Shown piece after piece: positions 56,239 through 64,000 of a stretch of 64,000 nt of DNA. Position numbers and translations under genes: made by a program. Position 1 is the stretch's first letter. Every line of letters starts with the position of its first letter. Below the pieces are notes generated by a model, which did no database searches, was not told the DNA's origin, and saw only the letters and a list, made by a program, of their open reading frames with translations. Source of the stretch: an uncultured Acidobacteriota bacterium (lineage in GTDB: Bacteria; Acidobacteriota; Thermoanaerobaculia; UBA5066; Gp7-AA6); assembly GCA_963736455.1 (NCBI GenBank), contig CAVTON010000001.1, positions 778,270 to 842,269 on the forward strand, read 5' to 3'.

Positions 56239-58602
56239 ATGGACCTGCTCACCTCGCTGACTTCGATCTCGGCCGGCATCGCGGTCCGGGCAACCATCCT
56301 GTTCGCGGCGACGGCGGCCGCGCTTTTCGTCCTGAGGCGGGCGAGCGCCGCGACCCGGCATCGGGTCGCCACCCTGGGGCTCGCCGCCGGCCTCCTCCTG
56401 CCCCTGCTCTCGCTCGCGCTGCCCCGCATCCCGGTCGGGCTGCTCTCGCGCTTTGGGTCAGACGGCGCCGCCTCCTCGCCGGGCCGCGGGCTCTGGCTCG
56501 TCGCCTTCTGGACGGTGGGCACCCTCGTCGTCGGCGCGCGCGTCGCGGTGGGATGGTCCCGTGTGCGCCGCCTCGCCCGGGACGCCTCGACCCTGACGGA
56601 CGCGGAGTGGATCGCCGAGAGAGACGAGGCTTCCCGCCGTCTCGCCGTCCCCCGGCCGGTCGCGCTGAAGGAGAGCGAAGACGTTCCGGTCGCCATCACG
56701 TCCGGCTGGCGCCGTCCGCTGCTCCTCGTGGGCCGGGCCGCGCGCGACTGGGCGGTCGAGCGCCGCCGCGTCGTGCTTCTGCACGAGCTCGCTCACGTCA
56801 AGCGCGCCGACTGGCCCGCGCTCCTTCTCACCGAGGCCGCGGTGGCGCTCTACTGGTTCCATCCCCTCGCGCTCTGGCTCGGCCGGCGCGTGCGCAGGGA
56901 GGCGGAGCAGGCCTGCGACGAGATGGTGATCGCGGCGGGAACGAAGCCCTCGGTCTACGCCGGGCACCTGCTCGGGATCTTCCGCTCCGTCGGCGCCCCG
57001 CATCCGGCGGTGCCCGCGCTCGCCATCGCCCGTCCTCATCATTTCGAGGCACGCCTGCGCGCGATCCTCGACCCGGCGGCGCCGGGCGGCAAGGGCATGA
57101 ACGCGATGGGACGCCTCGCCGTCGCCGGACTGGCGGCGGCGAGCGCCGCCGTCCTGGCCTTCGAGCCGCCGCCGCCGCACCCCGTGAGTCTCCGGTCCGC
57201 GAGCTGTGTCCTGGCCGCGTCCGGAGCGGGAGCGCCTGCGGGTTCCGATGACGTCCCGTGCCGCAAGAAACACGAGACCCGGATCGAGAGCGTGGCGGTC
57301 CAGACCCGCGAGCATCGGATCGAGATCCGGCGGACGGCCACGCAGGAGCGCACGCAGATCGACGAGCGCACCGTCACCGACGAATCGCAGGCGCCGGCGC
57401 TTCCGGAACCGGGCGCGAGCTTCCCCGCAATCTGGCGGGTGGACGCGGGCTCGGCGCCCCGGTCCGACATGGGATTCGTGAAGGCTTCCAACTCGCGCAA
57501 GACCCCCCGCGACGGGAGCGACTGGTACGGGCGGGGCATGGACCTCCACAACGGCGGCCACTACGAGAAGGCGATCGAAGCCTTCGAGAAGGCGATCGAG
57601 GACGGCTATCGCGAGGACGCGGCGAGCTACAACATCGCGTGCGGCTATGCCCTTCTCGGAGACAAGGACAAGGCGTTCGAGTGGCTGCACAAGGCGATGG
57701 ATGAAGGCTTCGACCTCGCGTCCTACCTCAGGAGTGACGACGACCTCGAGGACCTCCACGGCGACCCGCGCTGGGCCGAGATCAAGGCCGCGGCGCGCGA
57801 TCAGAAGTCGAGCGAGGCGCAGGCCGAGGCGCGCCGCGCCTCGACGCGGTACGAGCACCTCGTCGCGCGCAATCCCGAGAGCGGCGAGCCGTACTTCGAC
57901 ATGGGGCGCGAGCTCCTTCGCGCGGACGTCTACGACCTCGCGGCCAGGGCCTATGAGGCCTCGGCCGCGCACGGCTATCGCGTCTCGACCTCCCTCTACA
58001 ACGAAGCGTGCGCCCGATCGCTCGCCGGCCAGAAGGCCGAGGCCCTCGATCTGCTCCGGAAGGCGCTCGACGCCGGATTCGATCAGCCCGACCTCTTCGA
58101 CAAGGACGACGACCTCGACAACGTGCGTAGCGACCCGCATTTCGCGGCGCTCGCCGCCGAAGCGGAGGAGCTCTCTCTTCCCGGCTACGGCGTCGGACCC
58201 TGGAACTGGAACTCCCGTTCGAACCGCGCGAAGTGGCGTGACGCCGCGAAGCGCTTCCTCGCGTACGCCGACAAGCATCCGCAGTCCGGGCGCGCCTGGT
58301 ACAACGCCGGATTCTCCCTGCTCGCCGGCGACCGCGCCGACGAGGCCGCGGCGCCGTTCCGGAAGGCCCTGGATCTCGGCTACCGCAAGGACACGACGAT
58401 GTACAACCTCGCCTGCACGTACGCGCGGCTCGATCAGAAGGACCAGGCTTTCGACTGGCTCTTCAAGGCCCTCGACGCCGGCTTCGACGAGCAGTGGACA
58501 CTGCGGCACGACGACGACCTCGACAATCTGCGAGGCGACAGCCGGTACCGCAAGGCGGTCGAGATCGCGCGGGCGCGGGACCGGCAGGCCGAAAAGGACT
58601 AG
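56239..58602 (+). CDS. BlaR1/MecR1-like M56-peptidase signal transducer with non-canonical C-terminal repeat sensor domain
   Basis: Starts 2 nt after the blaI stop. 4 N-terminal TM helices, M56 zinc motif VLLHELAHVKRAD and downstream EQACDE. The C-terminal about 360 aa consist of three ~100-aa TPR-like repeats (…YNIACGYALLGDKDKAFEWLHKAMDEGFD…DDDLEDLHGDPRW / …YNEACARSLAGQKAEALDLLRKALDAGFD…DDDLDNVRSDPHF / …YNLACTYARLDQKDQAFDWLFKALDAGFD…DDDLDNLRGDSRY) in place of a penicillin-binding domain. Confidence 0.8.
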   Translation: MDLLTSLTSISAGIAVRATILFAATAAALFVLRRASAATRHRVATLGLAAGLLLPLLSLALPRIPVGLLSRFGSDGAASSPGRGLWLVAFWTVGTLVVGARVAVGWSRVRRLARDASTLTDAEWIAERDEASRRLAVPRPVALKESEDVPVAITSGWRRPLLLVGRAARDWAVERRRVVLLHELAHVKRADWPALLLTEAAVALYWFHPLALWLGRRVRREAEQACDEMVIAAGTKPSVYAGHLLGIFRSVGAPHPAVPALAIARPHHFEARLRAILDPAAPGGKGMNAMGRLAVAGLAAASAAVLAFEPPPPHPVSLRSASCVLAASGAGAPAGSDDVPCRKKHETRIESVAVQTREHRIEIRRTATQERTQIDERTVTDESQAPALPEPGASFPAIWRVDAGSAPRSDMGFVKASNSRKTPRDGSDWYGRGMDLHNGGHYEKAIEAFEKAIEDGYREDAASYNIACGYALLGDKDKAFEWLHKAMDEGFDLASYLRSDDDLEDLHGDPRWAEIKAAARDQKSSEAQAEARRASTRYEHLVARNPESGEPYFDMGRELLRADVYDLAARAYEASAAHGYRVSTSLYNEACARSLAGQKAEALDLLRKALDAGFDQPDLFDKDDDLDNVRSDPHFAALAAEAEELSLPGYGVGPWNWNSRSNRAKWRDAAKRFLAYADKHPQSGRAWYNAGFSLLAGDRADEAAAPFRKALDLGYRKDTTMYNLACTYARLDQKDQAFDWLFKALDAGFDEQWTLRHDDDLDNLRGDSRYRKAVEIARARDRQAEKD

Positions 58603-59267
58603 GAGCGAGGAACTCCGGGCGGAACGCCCGGCGGCTTCCCTGACGCGAGGCGCTCGAGATCCTTCGGCTCGTCGAGATCCGCCAGCCGGTCGGCGGGCCA
58701 CGAAACGGTCCGGGCGTGGCCGCGGCGGCGCCGGATGATCTCGCGGCCCGGTTCGTCGCCCTCGGCGATCTCCGCAAATAGCGGGCGCGCATAGAGCGTC
58801 GGCGGCGCCGCGACGCCGCCGTAGTCGGAGAGGACGAGTGGGGCGCCGGTTTCCCGGTGAAGGGCGGCGACGGCTCCGATCATCTCGGCCGTCACGTACG
58901 GCATGTCCGCAAGAATCACCACGGCGGCGCCGGCCTCATCCGGGACCGCCGCGATTCCGGCACGAAAGGACGAAGCCTGACCGCTCGCGTGCTGCGCATG
59001 GAAGAGCGGCCGGAAGGGGACGCCGTCCAGCGCCCGTCGGACGCGCTCCGCTTCGTGCCCGAGGACGACGATCACGGGGTCGAGCCCGGCATCGGCCGCC
59101 GCTCGCGCCGCCCGCGCCACGAGGGTTTCTCCATCGACGCGCAGGAGCAGCTTGTTGACGCCCATTCGCGTCGAGGAGCCCGCGGCGAGGACGACCGCGG
59201 CGATGCCGTACTCCCCGGCCTCAGGCGGCATGGGAATCAACGTACACCGGCCGTCCCGGAGGGTCAA
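58599..59267 (-). CDS. MobA-like NTP transferase domain protein (molybdenum cofactor cytidylyl/guanylyltransferase-like)
   Basis: AAVVLAAGSSTRMGVNKLL nucleotide-binding motif; the start may be at the internal Met (59231); convergent 4-nt overlap with the blaR1-like stop. Confidence 0.6.
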   Translation of the reverse strand: MTLRDGRCTLIPMPPEAGEYGIAAVVLAAGSSTRMGVNKLLLRVDGETLVARAARAAADAGLDPVIVVLGHEAERVRRALDGVPFRPLFHAQHASGQASSFRAGIAAVPDEAGAAVVILADMPYVTAEMIGAVAALHRETGAPLVLSDYGGVAAPPTLYARPLFAEIAEGDEPGREIIRRRRGHARTVSWPADRLADLDEPKDLERLASGKPPGVPPGVPRS

Positions 59268-59305
59268 CGCGCCGGCCGATTTCTGCCGTGCCGTAAGATT
59301 TCGGA

Positions 59306-60421
59306 ATGCCCGACACCGAGATCGCGGTCATCGGGGCGGGCGTCGTCGGCCTCGCGGTGGCGGCCCGTCTCGCTGCCGAGCATCCCGGGCTGATTGTTCT
59401 CGAACGCAATCCCCGGCACGGGATGGAGACGTCGAGCCGCAACAGCCAGGTCATCCACGCGGGTATCTACTATCCGGCCGGATCGCTCAAGGCCCGTTTC
59501 TGCGTCGAAGGCCGCGAGCGCGTCTACGAACTCTGCCGCCGCCACGACATCCCGCACGCGAAGCTCGGCAAGATCATCACCGCGTCGGTTCCCGAGGAGC
59601 TTCCGGCGCTGGATGCGATCGAGGCGGCCGCACAACAGAACGGCGTCGTGCTCCAGCGACTGTCGGCAACGGAGGCGCGCGCCCTCGAGCCGAACATGCG
59701 GACGGCCGGCGCGCTGCTGTCGCCCGAGTCGGGCATCGTGGATGCGCACGGCCTCATGGATGCGCTGCTCGCGCGGGCGGCGGCGGGCGGCGCGATCTTC
59801 CAGCCCCGCGCGCCGGTCGTGAACGTCGAGCGCGTTTCCGATGGATACCGGATCACCGTCGGCGGCGCGTCGGGAACGGAATCGTTCACCGCCGAGCGCG
59901 TCGTCAACGCCGCGGGGCTCGAGGCCGACTCGATCGCCGCCCTCGCGGGGATCGACGTCGACGCGGCCGGCTACCGCCAGCATCTCTGCAAGGGCAGCTA
60001 CTTCTCGGCCGCGCCGCGATGCGCCAGGCTCGTCTCGCGCCTGGTCTATCCCGTTCCCGCGCGCGAGAGCCTGGGCGTCCACGTGGTCCTCGACACGGGG
60101 GGCCGGATGCGCTTCGGGCCGGACGCGGAGTTCCTGGCGGATCGCCGCTACGACTATCGCGTGGATCCGTCGAGGCGCACGGCGTTCGCCGAGGCGGCCC
60201 GGCGCCTCCTGCCAAGCATCCGCGACGAAGACCTCGAGCCCGACATCAGCGGGATCCGACCGAAGCTGCAGGTCCGGGGCGGCCCGTTCCGCGACTTCGT
60301 CGTCGCCGAGGAGTCGGCGCGTGGGCTACCCGGTTTCTACGATCTCATCGGCATCGAATCGCCCGGCCTGACCGCCGCTCCGGCGATCGCCGAAGAGATC
60401 GCGCGCCTGATCCGGGGTTAG
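59306..60421 (+). CDS. lhgO: L-2-hydroxyglutarate oxidase/dehydrogenase-like FAD-dependent oxidoreductase
   Basis: IAVIGAGVVGLAVAARL ... VLERNPRHGMETSSRNSQVIHAGIYYPAGSLKA is characteristic of LhgO/YgaF; 371 aa. Confidence 0.75.
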   Translation: MPDTEIAVIGAGVVGLAVAARLAAEHPGLIVLERNPRHGMETSSRNSQVIHAGIYYPAGSLKARFCVEGRERVYELCRRHDIPHAKLGKIITASVPEELPALDAIEAAAQQNGVVLQRLSATEARALEPNMRTAGALLSPESGIVDAHGLMDALLARAAAGGAIFQPRAPVVNVERVSDGYRITVGGASGTESFTAERVVNAAGLEADSIAALAGIDVDAAGYRQHLCKGSYFSAAPRCARLVSRLVYPVPARESLGVHVVLDTGGRMRFGPDAEFLADRRYDYRVDPSRRTAFAEAARRLLPSIRDEDLEPDISGIRPKLQVRGGPFRDFVVAEESARGLPGFYDLIGIESPGLTAAPAIAEEIARLIRG

Positions 60422-60799
60422 AAGGGGGCCCTCACGCGTGCCCTGTCCCGCGGGAGAGGGGGTAACAGAGCTCGTCACGCCCATCTCTCCAACCGCTCGC
60501 GGCGTGAGAAGTCACCCGAGCGAAGCGAAGGTGGAGGCTCACGCCGCGGGAGCCGCAGCGTACCCCGGTTTCTACGATCTCATCGGCATCGAATCGCCCG
60601 GCCTGACCGCCGCTCCGGCGATCGCCGAAGAGATCGCGCGCCTGATCCGCGGTTAGAAGAGGGGCCCCTCACCCCTGCCCTCTCCCGCCGGGAGAGGGGG
60701 TGAGAGCTCGTCACGCCCACCTCTCCAAACAGCTCGCGGCGTGAGAAGTCACCCGAGCGAAGCGAAGGTGGAGGCTCACGCCGCGGGAGCCGCAGCGTA
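60332..60799. repeat. Tandem direct duplication, 2 x about 235 bp (about 93% identical), containing the last about 27 codons of lhgO plus about 150 bp of structured downstream sequence; a third partial copy of the cgagcgaagcgaagg core is at about 60865
   Basis: 60332-60566 and 60567-60799 align base-for-base, for example ggtttctacgatctcatcggcatcgaatcgcccggcctgaccgccgctccggcgatcgccgaagagatcgcgcgcctgatcc(g/c)gggttagaag. Each copy carries a 10-bp perfect hairpin gcggcgtgag-N27-ctcacgccgc. The ORF 60438-60656 is the duplicated lhgO tail. Confidence 0.7.
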
Positions 60800-60912
60800 G
60801 CGAGGGGTCAGGCGTCCGGTCGAGCCCGCATCCGGGCGAGCCGGACGCCGGTGCGCCCCAAAGGGGCGCAGACCCCGAGCGAAGCGAAGGCGACGGCAGC
60901 GGCGGCGACGGC

Positions 60913-62262
60913 CTAGAAATCGATCGAAGCCTGCGCCCCGAGCACGAGAGCGTTCGGGATCTGGCCCGTGGCGGCGGGCCGGATGACCCACTGGACGTCG
61001 GGCTGGAAACGGAACCAGCGGGTGATCTCGACACCGTAGTTCCACTCGAGCACGAGCTCGAACGTCTGGCCGGATACGGTGCGGTCGACCCATGTCGCGG
61101 CGAAGCCCTGCGTGTCGTAGGGACGGCACGCGAGCAGGCCGTTGGCCACCAGGCCGCCGAATGCCGCGACGTCGTTGACCGTCCCCGATCCCTGCGCCCA
61201 GCTCACTCCCCCGAGAACGGTGACGCCGGCCGGGACCTCGGCGACGCCGCGGCCCCGCGGCATGCTCTCGGTCAACGCCTGGTCCAGGAGGACGTACGCG
61301 CCGCCCTTCGCATCGCCGCGGCCGGCGATCGAGCGCATGAACGCCGCCGGCGCGCCCGAGGAGAGCGGCGGAGCCCGAGTCGGCGCCGCGGAAGAAAGCG
61401 GCGCGGATGCCGCCTCGTCCTGCGTCTGATACCACCCGCCGAGCTTGTAGTGCCCGGGCAGACCCGGCGCGTCGCCGCCGCGCACGTACCAGATCTCGCC
61501 GACGATCGCGGTGCCGGTCGAGCCGGCCGTGGACCAGTCGAAGCCGTGCGTGTCGGACAGCGTCGGGTTGACCTCGAAGGCGCCGACCTGCGCGAGAAGC
61601 TCGGGACGCGGTTTCCAGCGCACGCGACCCGCCCAGGCGGGCACGGGGAAGTACGGCATGTTGAGGTTCTGGGCGATTCCGCCCGGGTAGCCGCAGAAGC
61701 CGTTGTTCATGAACACGCAGTAGAGAGGCGACGTGGCGAAATCGCTCGCCGGGTACCGTCCCGCGACGACGTCCCACGCGCCTCCGGCGAACGACTGCTC
61801 GAGCGTGAGCTCGGTCAGGCGATAGGTCTCGGTGGGCCCGTAGATCTGCTGAACGGTGAAGATGTTTCCGATGTACGACTGCGACAGGCTGGTGCCGTCG
61901 CGGTTGGTGAAGATGAAATGGAGGCTGCCCCCCTTCCATGAAACGAGCCTCTGGAAATCGAGGTCGATCGAGAGATTGAGACTGTCGGTGTAGGTGAAGC
62001 CCTGCCGCTGCCCGCCGACCGGATTGCCCGCGAGGTTCGTCCAGTATTCGAAGGCGATCCTGACGCCGCTCTCCGCGAGCCGGGTCCGCGCCCCGCCCCA
62101 GTCGCCCGTCAGCTCGGTCTCGTTGGCGAGCTTCCGGAGATTCTGGGCGGCGAGGGGAATCGCCAGGAAGAACAGGGGCGCAAACGCCGCCAGCCGCGCC
62201 AGGCTCTGGCTCGCCCCGGGCCGGCATTCGGCGGTCATGCGCGGCTTCATTATCGCGCGCAC
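60913..62262 (-). CDS. Carbohydrate-selective porin, OprB family
   Basis: Signal peptide (FAPLFFLAIPLAAQ), then the OprB-like N-terminal block LTGDWGGARTRLAESGVRIAFEYWTNLAGNPVGG and a beta-barrel terminal Phe (SIDF). Confidence 0.7.
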   Translation of the reverse strand: MRAIMKPRMTAECRPGASQSLARLAAFAPLFFLAIPLAAQNLRKLANETELTGDWGGARTRLAESGVRIAFEYWTNLAGNPVGGQRQGFTYTDSLNLSIDLDFQRLVSWKGGSLHFIFTNRDGTSLSQSYIGNIFTVQQIYGPTETYRLTELTLEQSFAGGAWDVVAGRYPASDFATSPLYCVFMNNGFCGYPGGIAQNLNMPYFPVPAWAGRVRWKPRPELLAQVGAFEVNPTLSDTHGFDWSTAGSTGTAIVGEIWYVRGGDAPGLPGHYKLGGWYQTQDEAASAPLSSAAPTRAPPLSSGAPAAFMRSIAGRGDAKGGAYVLLDQALTESMPRGRGVAEVPAGVTVLGGVSWAQGSGTVNDVAAFGGLVANGLLACRPYDTQGFAATWVDRTVSGQTFELVLEWNYGVEITRWFRFQPDVQWVIRPAATGQIPNALVLGAQASIDF

Positions 62263-62318
62263 CGTCCTCGCAAGAGACGGACGGCGCGTTCCTCGATATG
62301 CTCCGGGCGAGGGACTCC

Positions 62319-64000
62319 ATGAATCGACGCACGTTCGTCAAGCGCATCGGCGCACTGCCCCTCCTCTCGAGGCTGGGATGGCTCGCTGCGGTTCCGGGGC
62401 GCGGCGCGGGTGCGGTGCCCTTCCGCCGGGTCCGGCCCTCCGACCCGGGCTGGCCTTCTGCCGAGAAGTGGGCTCGCCTCAAGGACCAGGTCGGAGGCCG
62501 CCTGATTGCGGTGACCTCTCCGCTCGAGCCATGCACGCGCGCCCCCGGAAGCGCCGCGTGCGCCTCGCGCCTGGAGGAAATGAAGAATCCGTACTTCATC
62601 GGCGATCAGGCCGGGGGCACGCAGCTCTCCGGATGGCTCGGCGCGTGGACGTCCTCGCCGAGCGCATACGCGGTCGAAGCCCGCCGGACCGAGGACGTCG
62701 TCGCGGCGGTCAACTTCGCCCGCGAAAACCGCCTGCGTCTCGTCGTGAAGGGCGCCGGCCACAGCTATCTCGGCACGTCGAATGCGCCGGACTCGCTCCT
62801 CGTCTGGACGCACGACATGCGCGCGATCCGGCTCCACGAGGCGTTCGTGCCGGAGGGCTGCCGGACGCCGCCCGTGCCGGCGGTCACGATCGAGCCCGGC
62901 GCGCGCTGGATCGAGGCCTACGACGCCGTCACGACGAAGGGAGGCCGCTACGTTCAGGGGGGCGGCTGCTGCACCGTCGGCGTCGTCGGCCTGCTTTCCG
63001 GCGGAGGCTTCGGCAGTTTCTCGAAGTTCTACGGAATGGCCGCCGCATACCTGCTCGAGGCCGAGATCGTCACCGCCGACGGCCGCACCCTGATCGCCAA
63101 CGCCTGCTCCCAGCCCGATCTCTTCTGGTCTCTGAAGGGCGGCGGAGGGGGAACGTTCGGCATCGTCACCCGGGTGACGCTCGCGACCCATGCCCTGCCT
63201 GAGACCTTCGGGGCCGTCAGCGGAAAGGTCAAGGCCGCGTCGGATGCGGCGTATCGCCGGCTCGTTCTCGAATTCATGCGCTTCTACGAGAAGTCGCTCT
63301 TCAATCCGCACTGGGGCGAGCAGGCGACCTTTGGTCCGGACAATACGCTCGGGATCCACGTGCTGGCCGCGGGATTGAGCGACGACGCCGCGGAGGCGAC
63401 CTGGAAGCCTCTCCGCGAATTCCTGGCGGCATCGCCGGCCGACTTTCAGATCGTCGAACCGATTCGGGTGGGCACGACCGCCGCCCGAAACTGGTGGGAC
63501 TACGAGTGGCGCCGCCAGCACTCTCCGGACGCGATGATGGCGGATCCGCGGCCGGGTGCTCCGGCTTCGAACGTCTGGTGGTCCGACAACTCCGGCGAGG
63601 CCGACGCGTTCCTGTACGGCTACGAGTCGCTGTGGCTGCCCGCACCCCTCCTTCGAAACCCGGAGCGGCTCGCCAGCGCGATCTACGACGCTTCGCGGCA
63701 CTTCGAGGTCCAGCTTCACTTCAACAAGGGGCTCGGCGGGGCGCCGGCCGAGCGGGTCGCCGCGGCCCGCGAAACGGCGACCAATCCCGCCGTTCTCGAC
63801 GCCTTTGCCCTCGCCATCATCGCGACCGGCGTTTCCCACAGAAATCCCGGCATCGCGGGCCACGAGCCGGACATCACTCGGGGCAAAGCCGACGCGGCCG
63901 CGATCACGGCGGCGGCCGACGCGCTGCGCGCGATCGTTCCGGACGCCGGCTCCTACGCGAACGAGAGCAACTACTTCGACGGCGCCTTCCAGAAGTCCTA
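62319..64000 (+). CDS. FAD-linked oxidase (FAD_binding_4/PCMH, BBE-like) with Tat signal peptide; 3' end beyond the window
   Basis: ATG at 62319: MNRRTFVKRIGALPLLSRLGWLAAVPG (twin-Arg motif) ... VVKGAGHSYLG ... GGGCCTVGVVGLLSGGGFGSFSKFYGMAAAYLLEAEIVTADG (FAD-binding PCMH). No stop before the window end, so it is absent from the ORF track. The overlapping track ORFs 61994-63202(+) and 62250-63863(-) are artefacts. Confidence 0.7.
   Translation, partial: MNRRTFVKRIGALPLLSRLGWLAAVPGRGAGAVPFRRVRPSDPGWPSAEKWARLKDQVGGRLIAVTSPLEPCTRAPGSAACASRLEEMKNPYFIGDQAGGTQLSGWLGAWTSSPSAYAVEARRTEDVVAAVNFARENRLRLVVKGAGHSYLGTSNAPDSLLVWTHDMRAIRLHEAFVPEGCRTPPVPAVTIEPGARWIEAYDAVTTKGGRYVQGGGCCTVGVVGLLSGGGFGSFSKFYGMAAAYLLEAEIVTADGRTLIANACSQPDLFWSLKGGGGGTFGIVTRVTLATHALPETFGAVSGKVKAASDAAYRRLVLEFMRFYEKSLFNPHWGEQATFGPDNTLGIHVLAAGLSDDAAEATWKPLREFLAASPADFQIVEPIRVGTTAARNWWDYEWRRQHSPDAMMADPRPGAPASNVWWSDNSGEADAFLYGYESLWLPAPLLRNPERLASAIYDASRHFEVQLHFNKGLGGAPAERVAAARETATNPAVLDAFALAIIATGVSHRNPGIAGHEPDITRGKADAAAITAAADALRAIVPDAGSYANESNYFDGAFQKS

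Follow-up and report, generated by a model that had tools for sequence, protein, structure and literature searches.

How did two nearly identical sequences of about 235 nt come to lie head to tail at the end of an lhgO-like gene in the 64-kb stretch of DNA considered here, and what is the folded DNA that they share? The stretch (hereafter the window, to which coordinates refer unless a locus handle is given) comes from an uncultured acidobacterium of the Thermoanaerobaculia, and the repeated sequences occupy much of the spacer between this gene and a convergent oprB gene. An earlier note, made from the letters of the window, had offered two explanations: a slippage duplication of a bidirectional terminator, or a repetitive extragenic or small-RNA element. 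The answer developed below has two parts. The tandem duplication is confined to the lineage of the window, being represented by a single copy in a syntenic relative (L051), and is probably a local matter of little consequence. The non-coding part of what was duplicated, in turn, belongs to a family of modular, non-coding repeats that are dispersed in Thermoanaerobaculia-type Acidobacteriota. This family, uncatalogued and not previously described, adjoins the 3' ends of genes with a fixed polarity and a bias towards TAA stop codons, and its fold is supported by compensatory base changes. The two genes that bound the spacer are:

59306..60421, + strand: intact gene for an LhgO-like FAD-dependent oxidoreductase, with its stop codon (TAG) at 60419-60421 (Pfam DAO, E = 1.6e-62; homologues of the product bear the JGI name L-2-hydroxyglutarate oxidase)
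60913..62262, - strand: gene for an OprB-family porin, with a TAG stop codon (CTA on the + strand, 60913-60915) adjoining the element

The tandem duplication

A repeat search of the window matched 60329-60431 with 60564-60666 (97% identity, spacing 235) and 60491-60562 with 60728-60799 (99%, spacing 237), and pairwise alignment resolved the region into two directly adjoining units, with no DNA between them and a mean column identity of 94%; the 235-nt repeat was absent from the output of Tandem Repeats Finder. The units are:

60329..60563, + strand: duplication unit 1 (235 nt), comprising the last 30 codons and stop of lhgO, a degenerate hairpin A, a linker and hairpin B, followed by GGAGCCGCAGCGTA
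60564..60800, + strand: duplication unit 2 (237 nt), comprising a dead copy of the lhgO tail (60564-60656) and the 5' two-thirds of a complete element

The tandem duplication described in the earlier note is therefore confirmed by both approaches, and the repeat is the same one, although its phase is slightly shifted from the 60332-60566 and 60567-60799 given there; likewise, the end of lhgO is indeed duplicated, but to the extent of 30 codons rather than about 27, with some 140 nt of folded non-coding DNA after it in each unit. lhgO itself was left intact, the by-products being a dead 30-codon tail and a 3'-truncated fragment of the element. An open reading frame (ORF) of 72 amino acids (aa) that had been noticed at 60438-60656 does exist, and is the dead lhgO tail read through, the end of the ORF weakly matching the DAO family (E = 0.003).

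At the novel junction the sequence reads GCAGCGTA/CCCCGG (a slash marks the boundary). When the parental boundaries, GGGCTA/CCCGG and AGCGTA/GCGAG, are set against AGCGTA/CCCCGG, a 2-nt microhomology (TA) at the junction is evident; together with the unduplicated state of L051, this upholds the earlier suggestion of a local tandem duplication, and agrees with an origin by slippage or illegitimate recombination. The two units differ at about 15 positions, indels included, and these are distributed very unevenly: one in the 95 nt of the lhgO tail and none in the 69 nt of hairpin B, but about 14 (three of them indels) in the 73 nt of hairpin A plus linker (60422-60494 compared with 60657-60731). 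Such clustering suggests that this part is a mutational hot spot, or that another copy of the element has been the donor in gene conversion.

A dispersed family of copies

Dispersal was measured in the genomes of relatives and in metagenomes, the source genome being represented by its 64-kb window. Exact matches to a 21-mer taken from the hairpin B apex (CACCCGAGCGAAGCGARGGTG) were found in 86 stretches of a collection of species-representative genomes: about 39 matches were in one metagenome-assembled genome (MAG), MFD06714.bin.2.31, on two contigs of 3.43 and 1.02 Mb, about 16 were in the Thermoanaerobaculia MAG XM2_XAASGE4bin.10, and four further Acidobacteriota MAGs had one each. A 33-mer added 20 copies from soil metagenomes. 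A repetitive extragenic element, for which the earlier note had named a genome-wide search as the check, is what this search, run on related genomes, revealed, with dozens of copies. Other matches to the 21-mer (haloarchaea, Afipia, Paludibacteraceae and others) share the 21-mer only, in unrelated contexts. There were no matches to hairpin B in the viral contigs scanned, none to the duplication junction in the JGI metagenomes, and no further copies of the element elsewhere in the window.

The family seems to have escaped notice. We found no description of it in literature on the core sequence or on repeats of Thermoanaerobaculia or Acidobacteria, and comparison with Rfam 15 (including group II intron domains, HEARO and Acido-1) gave only sub-threshold chance matches; at the Rfam gathering threshold, 12 loci yielded one tRNA and nothing else. 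In the window, ARAGORN detected no tRNA or tmRNA gene in 58000-63000, and a scan limited to sigma-70-like promoters detected none in 59000-62500. Nor is the idea of a bidirectional terminator supported in the canonical sense of a hairpin followed by a T-run: no such run follows any of hairpins A-D, and a terminator scan of both strands of 60422-60912 was empty.

Two observations may be added here. In haloarchaea, the 21-mer (CACCCGAGCGAAGCGAGGGTG) lies within an inverted repeat, GATTTGAACC...GGTTCAAATC, located 65-90 nt downstream of tRNA genes; the occurrences outside the acidobacterial family (L040:1433-1453, L053:1819-1839, L058:3079-3099, L072:5156-5176 and L076:7683-7703, from haloarchaea and also from Afipia, Stappiaceae and Paludibacteraceae) have flanks unrelated to those of the family. 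Secondly, short-read contigs of MAG XM2_XAASGE4bin.10 (L020, L027, L032, L035, L067, L071 and L088) often start or stop inside the element, from which it appears that the repeat fragments assemblies.

Anatomy of the element

A full member of the family is about 240 nt long and consists of hairpin A, a linker, hairpin B, a junction holding hairpins C and D, a second core, and a terminus ending in GGAGGCGACG; across the family, units range from 165 to 300 nt and have four or five helices. The window contains one complete element and, in duplication unit 1, a fragment of another:

60657..60896, + strand: complete element, some 240 nt long (A, linker, B, the junction holding C and D, second core, GGCGACGG terminus; profile match at 60731-60895)
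60429..60468, + strand: hairpin A, copy 1, degenerate (CCCTCACGCGTGCCCTGTCCCG / CGGGAGAGGGGGTAACAG), in which most of the differences between units fall
60665..60704, + strand: hairpin A, copy 2, canonical (CCCCTCACCCCTGCCCTCTCCCG / CGGGAGAGGGGGTGAG)
60495..60553, + strand: hairpin B, copy 1, in the 3'-truncated fragment, matching only profile positions 3-80 (at 60494-60571)
60732..60790, + strand: hairpin B, copy 2, with a 13-bp stem, an internal loop, a CACC/GGTG stem and an apical GCGAAGC mini-hairpin
60804..60876, + strand: junction, in which a closing helix GGGGTC/GACCCC (60804-60809/60871-60876) surrounds hairpin C (60811-60849) and hairpin D (60852-60870)
60874..60896, + strand: second core (CCCGAGCGAAGCGAAGG) and the conserved 3' terminus GGCGACGG
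60897..60912, + strand: an extra, partial repeat of the terminus (16 nt, CAGCGGCGGCGACGGC) between the element and the oprB stop

Terminal re-duplications of the last kind, of 12-15 nt, are also seen in L001, L008, L048, L057 and L064.

The core stem of hairpin B is CGCGGCGTGAG-N29-CTCACGCCGCG, with 11 perfect pairs (60498-60508/60538-60548 and 60735-60745/60775-60785) that extend to 13 pairs plus the apical CACC/GGTG stem. The hairpin with a 10-bp stem perceived in the earlier note is thus present, with one more pair and with N29 between its arms. The 15-mer CGAGCGAAGCGAAGG has three exact matches, at 60517, 60754 and 60876 (allowing up to two mismatches, it has seven in the window against 1.19 expected), so that a core does recur a third time, as had been remarked; it is, however, the internal second core to be found in every full member, and not a third duplication unit. 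The pairing once proposed between GGGAGAGGGGG and a downstream CTCTCC is not primary either, the family-wide partner being the upstream CCCTCTCCC arm of hairpin A.

Across the family hairpin A takes the form CCCCTCACCCCnnCCCTCTCCC...GGGAGAGGGGGTA, at times doubled or with nested inserts, and 44 of the 50 hairpin A arms in the sampled loci lie no more than 350 nt from a B core. The linker between A and B occurs as two types. Hairpin B has the family form GCTCGCGGCGTGAGAAGTCACCCGAGCGAAGCGAGGGTGGAGGCTCACGCCGCGGGAGC, and the closing helix of the junction varies in sequence (examples are GGGGCC/GGCCCC, GGGATC/GATCCC and GGAGTC/GACTCC). A natural short form that dispenses with hairpin C is present in L091, L095, L097, L100-L102, L105 and L107-L109 (from soil metagenome Ga0066903 and others): it has hairpin B, a closing helix around a single GCGGCC-GAAG-GCCGC hairpin and the usual terminus, and still adjoins stop codons and the ends of tRNA genes.

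Compensatory changes and the folded strand

For an alignment of 52 segments reaching from hairpin B to the terminus, RNAalifold gave a consensus of 51 pairs. Standard pairs were formed in 99.0% of cells, compared with 92.8 +/- 0.3% in shuffled alignments and 35-48% when partners were slid by one to three columns; 157 cells were changed on both sides (41.6 +/- 8.6 in shuffles, with none of 500 as high), and 12 pairs showed compensatory change (8.7 +/- 1.0 in shuffles, with one of 500 as high). All 12 are in the closing helix and hairpins C and D (helices 5, 6 and 7). Hairpin B (59 nt) did not vary in the aligned set and is nearly invariant across the family, an invariance that is partly built in, because the copies were retrieved through an exact match to its apex. 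Six neighbouring copies were found by profile search alone and so were not selected by the core: four of these have apical variants (GCGTAGC, GCGGAGC, GCAAAGC and GCGCAGC). In the neighbour copy of L056 there is a compensatory change of CACCC/GGGTG to CTCCC/GGGAG with the loop unchanged, and the more divergent neighbour copy of L103 combines the same change with GUGAG/CUCAC to GCGCG/CGCGC and an altered apical loop.

The apex of hairpin B recalls a known structural motif, since GCGNAGC forms an extraordinarily stable DNA mini-hairpin (PMC13037366), and both GCGAAGC and the variants GCGTAGC, GCGGAGC and GCGCAGC fit it. The likeness is to a structural motif and not to a genetic element, and in hairpin B the mini-hairpin is only predicted, whether as DNA or as RNA.

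Which strand would be folded? The excess of G-U over A-C cells (127 versus 13 in all, and 25 versus 13 among minority cells) weakly favours the + strand, which in the window is the sense strand of lhgO. RNA folding of 60657-60896 was far better than that of shuffled sequences on both strands (z = -6.2 on the + strand and -4.3 on the - strand), and nearest-neighbour DNA folding of hairpin B, at -18.3 kcal/mol on each, does not separate them. In the minus-strand fold of 60657-60896, the terminus (CCGUCGCC...) was paired with the A-B linker (..GGCGUGACG..), so that a long-range helix closing the whole B-C-D domain is possible in this model.

Position against the ends of genes

Of 52 copies, 46 have an opposite-strand gene as their right-hand neighbour, and the left-hand neighbour may be on either strand (33 versus 19). 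Under a strict test, in which only ORFs of at least 60 codons with a third-position G+C fraction (GC3) of at least 0.75 qualified, the terminus of 40 copies lay 0-5 nt (most often 1 nt) away from the stop codon of a qualifying gene. Another element comes next in about eight of the 30 other copies with a recognisable 3' terminus, at least seven copies terminate within 1-6 nt of the 3' end of an opposite-strand tRNA gene (confirmed by ARAGORN in three, and read from the flanking sequence in the others), and several more adjoin probable stops excluded by the ORF filter. Between GGCGACG and the gene end lies a variable, T/A-rich filler (G, T, TT, TC, AAAAT and others). No conserved sequence was found inside the abutted genes.

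It follows from this family-wide rule that the element in the window is positioned against oprB and not, as the earlier note had it, in association with lhgO. The stop codons concerned also lean towards TAA:

Stops next to the element (n = 40): TAA 27, TAG 10, TGA 3
Stops of every gene called at the family loci of the first, genome-derived set (n = 285): TAA 48, TAG 96, TGA 141

An absolute rule that TGA never stands beside the element was considered, and was overturned by three cases among the metagenome copies. The stop of oprB is TGA in three element-free relatives and TAA or TAG in three genomes where the site is filled, a change that counts as one evolutionary event only. Along the 3.4-Mb contig of one relative, the orientation of copies showed no simple two-arm replication polarity.

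In two genomes (L033:2384-3100 and L071) the element adjoins, perhaps by coincidence, the stop codon of rnc, the gene for RNase III, an enzyme that cleaves double-stranded RNA.

The same spacer in relatives, and the turnover of copies

The lhgO-oprB spacer could be compared in six genomes:

L001: LhgO 91% identical (aa), syntenic; 667-nt lhgO-oprB spacer with a duplication of its own (300 nt x 2, 99% identical, fully intergenic)
L051 (MAG MFD06714.bin.2.31): 88% identical (nt), syntenic; one non-coding element, with the lhgO tail unrepeated
L002, L111 and L114: LhgO 77-80% identical (aa); the same convergent pair, with 25, 9 and 10 nt between stops and no element

The duplication in L001, the closest available relative, spans the whole element (L001:11174-11775) and has boundaries unlike those of the window. 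These states indicate that the element entered the spacer in the common ancestor of the window, L001 and L051, and that it was later duplicated, independently and with different boundaries, in two of the three lineages (the window and L001).

Persistence at a site does not mean constancy of sequence. The C-D parts at the orthologous lhgO-oprB site share only 67-81% identity among the window, L001 and L051, whereas copies at other loci or in other genomes match each of them at 88-98%. Orthologous sites downstream of tRNA-Leu(gag) (L010, L029 and L074) and of the RNase III gene (L033 and L071) are likewise filled with different subtypes. Tandem arrays of non-identical copies are common (L005, L006, L043, L056 and L084), and the copy closest to the gene in such arrays is usually 5'-truncated with its 3' end retained. 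Among partial copies, nine are 5'-truncated and five are 3'-truncated, with breakpoints at the apex or base of hairpin B. Exclusive 5'-truncation, which would have had a retroelement-like look, was ruled out when profile searches brought the 3'-truncated fragments to light.

Comparison with known repeat systems

Repetitive extragenic palindromic (REP) sequences and bacterial interspersed mosaic elements (BIMEs) of enterobacteria and pseudomonads resemble the family in being dispersed intergenic palindromes without coding capacity, situated for the most part at the 3' ends of genes or between convergent genes, in their mosaic or tandem clusters, and in being thought to act as single-stranded DNA or RNA hairpins (PMC3733652). 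A survey of REPs describes much smaller palindromes headed by GTAG or CGTC, the CGTC type having no dedicated transposase (PMC3733652). Our element also has no linked transposase, and its minus strand starts with CGTC, but no palindrome follows. It differs further in that a REP is a single palindrome of 20-40 nt, whereas the element is an oriented unit of 165-300 nt and four or five helices, including a near-invariant hairpin of 59 nt and a multi-helix junction, and in that no gene for a REP-associated tyrosine (Y1) transposase (RAYT) was seen within the 8-kb flanks of 55 loci. To our knowledge, REPs do not adjoin stop codons at 0-5 nt.

Closer in size are the Rhizobium-specific intergenic mosaic element (RIME) and the enterobacterial repetitive intergenic consensus (ERIC), also called the intergenic repeat unit (IRU): these are structured, non-coding, intergenic repeats of at least 100-150 nt, built of large palindromes and present in tens of copies. 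The features are shared with our element, the likeness being one of description, with no relationship of sequence to be expected; we know of no report of a fixed polarity of RIME or ERIC/IRU against gene ends. MITEs (miniature transposable elements with inverted repeats) such as Correia/NEMIS are comparable in their size class, their lack of autonomy, their copy number, their subfamilies and a possible effect on flanking transcripts, but our element has asymmetric ends without terminal inverted repeats, and no target-site duplications were found.

Asymmetric ends of this sort, with subterminal hairpins, no terminal inverted repeats or target duplication, strand-specific structure and orientation-specific insertion, are found in elements derived from IS200/IS605 (PATEs and REPINs). 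Unlike these, the family has no constant target of 4-5 nt (the bases before CGTCGCC are TAAC, GTAA, TAAA, TAGA or TGAA, and CCAAC at tRNA genes), no TnpA or TnpB gene nearby and no Rfam match. Finally, mycobacterial interspersed repetitive units (MIRUs) are intergenic repeats that touch the stop or start codons of flanking genes and are often in tandem; their units are of 40-100 bp, follow the direction of the operon and contain small ORFs. The contact with codons of flanking genes and the tandem habit are shared, but our element is non-coding and the gene that it abuts is opposite to the folded strand.

What kind of element is it?

We consider it reasonably probable that the family is a non-autonomous repeat of the REP/BIME/RIME type, mobilised in trans, and that the duplication in the window arose by slippage at hairpin B. 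A factor acting in trans might recognise hairpin B in single-stranded form and spread or homogenise copies, which would turn over at favoured gene-end sites through re-insertion or gene conversion. The same hairpin, being very stable, could stall replication and so become a hot spot for breakpoints; as a replication obstacle, it would explain the 235-nt duplication, the 300-nt duplication of L001 and the many truncated copies. The 235-nt duplication would then be a by-product of slippage or template switching, without a function of its own. Judged by where they lie, the stacked hairpins probably serve, in addition, as structures at the ends of the convergent genes' transcripts.

Several points weigh against this account. 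Simple slippage does not explain the uneven divergence between the two units, and the mechanism of duplication has been deduced from anatomy alone. The 8-kb flanks of 55 loci held no transposase, reverse transcriptase or other recurrent ORF, but only ordinary paralogues (kinases, transporters). There are no convincing terminal inverted repeats, the left end (AGTCCTCCCCCTCACC) and the right end (GGAGGCGACG) sharing at most a weak GTCnCCTCC, and the left boundary is itself heterogeneous. No consistent direct repeat flanks the copies as a target-site duplication would; tetranucleotides resembling T(T/A/C)AG recur on both sides but coincide with stop codons. With neither of these marks, mobility has to be deduced solely from distribution and from incongruent similarity. 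The selection of copies through the apex of hairpin B, mentioned above, tempers the argument from its invariance. The rule that places the element at gene ends is not explained, and persistence at orthologous sites (lhgO-oprB, tRNA-Leu(gag) and rnc) in genomes 78-88% identical, with pairing kept, would also fit an RNA selected by the host.

Such an RNA is a serious alternative, possible though on the whole unlikely: the element would be a cis-acting module of the 3' untranslated region, serving termination, processing or stabilisation for the abutted gene (here oprB) and multiplied because it is useful, with the duplication still an accident. The fixed polarity and 0-5-nt spacing to gene ends, the retention of copies at these orthologous sites, the strong compensatory covariation, and the natural short form, in which hairpin B, the closing helix and a single hairpin are kept, all speak for it. 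It accords less well with the fact that G-U pairs favour the strand antisense to the abutted gene, with the lack of a U-tract at any hairpin and with the lack of a match to an Rfam family. Moreover, orthologous sites hold different subtypes nearer to copies at other loci, and the mosaic left ends, the tandem arrays and the truncated copies are what repeat DNA typically shows.

Might the positional rule mark a new kind of non-autonomous element? This would be one of fixed polarity, placed precisely at gene 3' boundaries (protein stop codons and the 3' ends of tRNAs alike), with a T/A-rich filler tending to make the stop TAA, no inverted repeats, target duplication or linked enzyme, and recognition via its GCGNAGC-capped, near-invariant hairpin. 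We think this unlikely; if true, it would imply a targeting mechanism (transcript- or structure-guided, and possibly copy-based) not described for bacterial repeats. If the rule reflects an insertion mechanism, it would be a new way for mobile DNA to reach safe sites; if it reflects function, the family would be a widespread transcript-end module in Acidobacteria.

Another reading, which seems to us quite improbable, is integration by an undescribed mechanism aimed at gene ends, such as target- or transcript-primed copying of a + strand template, whose 3' end would be joined at the gene boundary via a few untemplated T/A-rich bases that rewrite the stop codon. The variable filler of 0-5 nt between GGCGACG and the gene end, the preponderance of TAA in adjoining stops, the replacement of TGA at the end of oprB in filled genomes, the 5'-truncation of the array copy nearest the gene and the lack of terminal inverted repeats and target duplication are all in keeping with it. 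On the other hand, fragments truncated at the 3' end occur too (five, against nine of the 5'-truncated type), neither a reverse transcriptase nor a nuclease is linked to the copies, the change of the oprB stop was a single event, and truncation points that coincide with hairpin B are explained by replication slippage as well.

It is very improbable that the tandem duplication is an artefact of assembly. The region is highly structured and repetitive, a relative's short-read assemblies break at the element, and the junction sequence had no match in the JGI metagenomes; but about 15 substitutions and indels between units are not something that an assembler invents, the source contig of 2.95 Mb suggests long reads, and the independent duplication in L001 indicates that this spacer duplicates in nature. 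Because the units differ at so many positions, indels among them, we take the duplication to be real sequence. Scarcely credible is the idea that the lhgO tails are attachment sites of an integrated or excised element that brought along a copy of the gene's 3' end: duplication of this part of a target gene is frequent with integrative elements, but here the two repeats adjoin with nothing between, there is no integrase nearby, no other family member has a flanking-gene duplication, and no relative was seen with cargo DNA between two lhgO tails.

As an ordinary local rearrangement that left lhgO intact and its extra tail as dead DNA, the duplication itself matters little. The element matters more, as a structured repeat, uncatalogued and with a fold backed by covariation, from an uncultured soil lineage; it breaks short-read assemblies and seeds local rearrangements, and a covariance model of the family would help annotation, for example by avoiding false ORFs like the one of 72 aa.

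A neighbouring gene

Upstream of the lhgO region, at 56239-58602, the window encodes a BlaR1-like M56 peptidase of 787 aa with a long TPR-rich C-terminal region. In the syntenic L001, the gene for the BlaR1-like M56 peptidase is preceded by one for a repressor of the BlaI/Penicillinase_R type.

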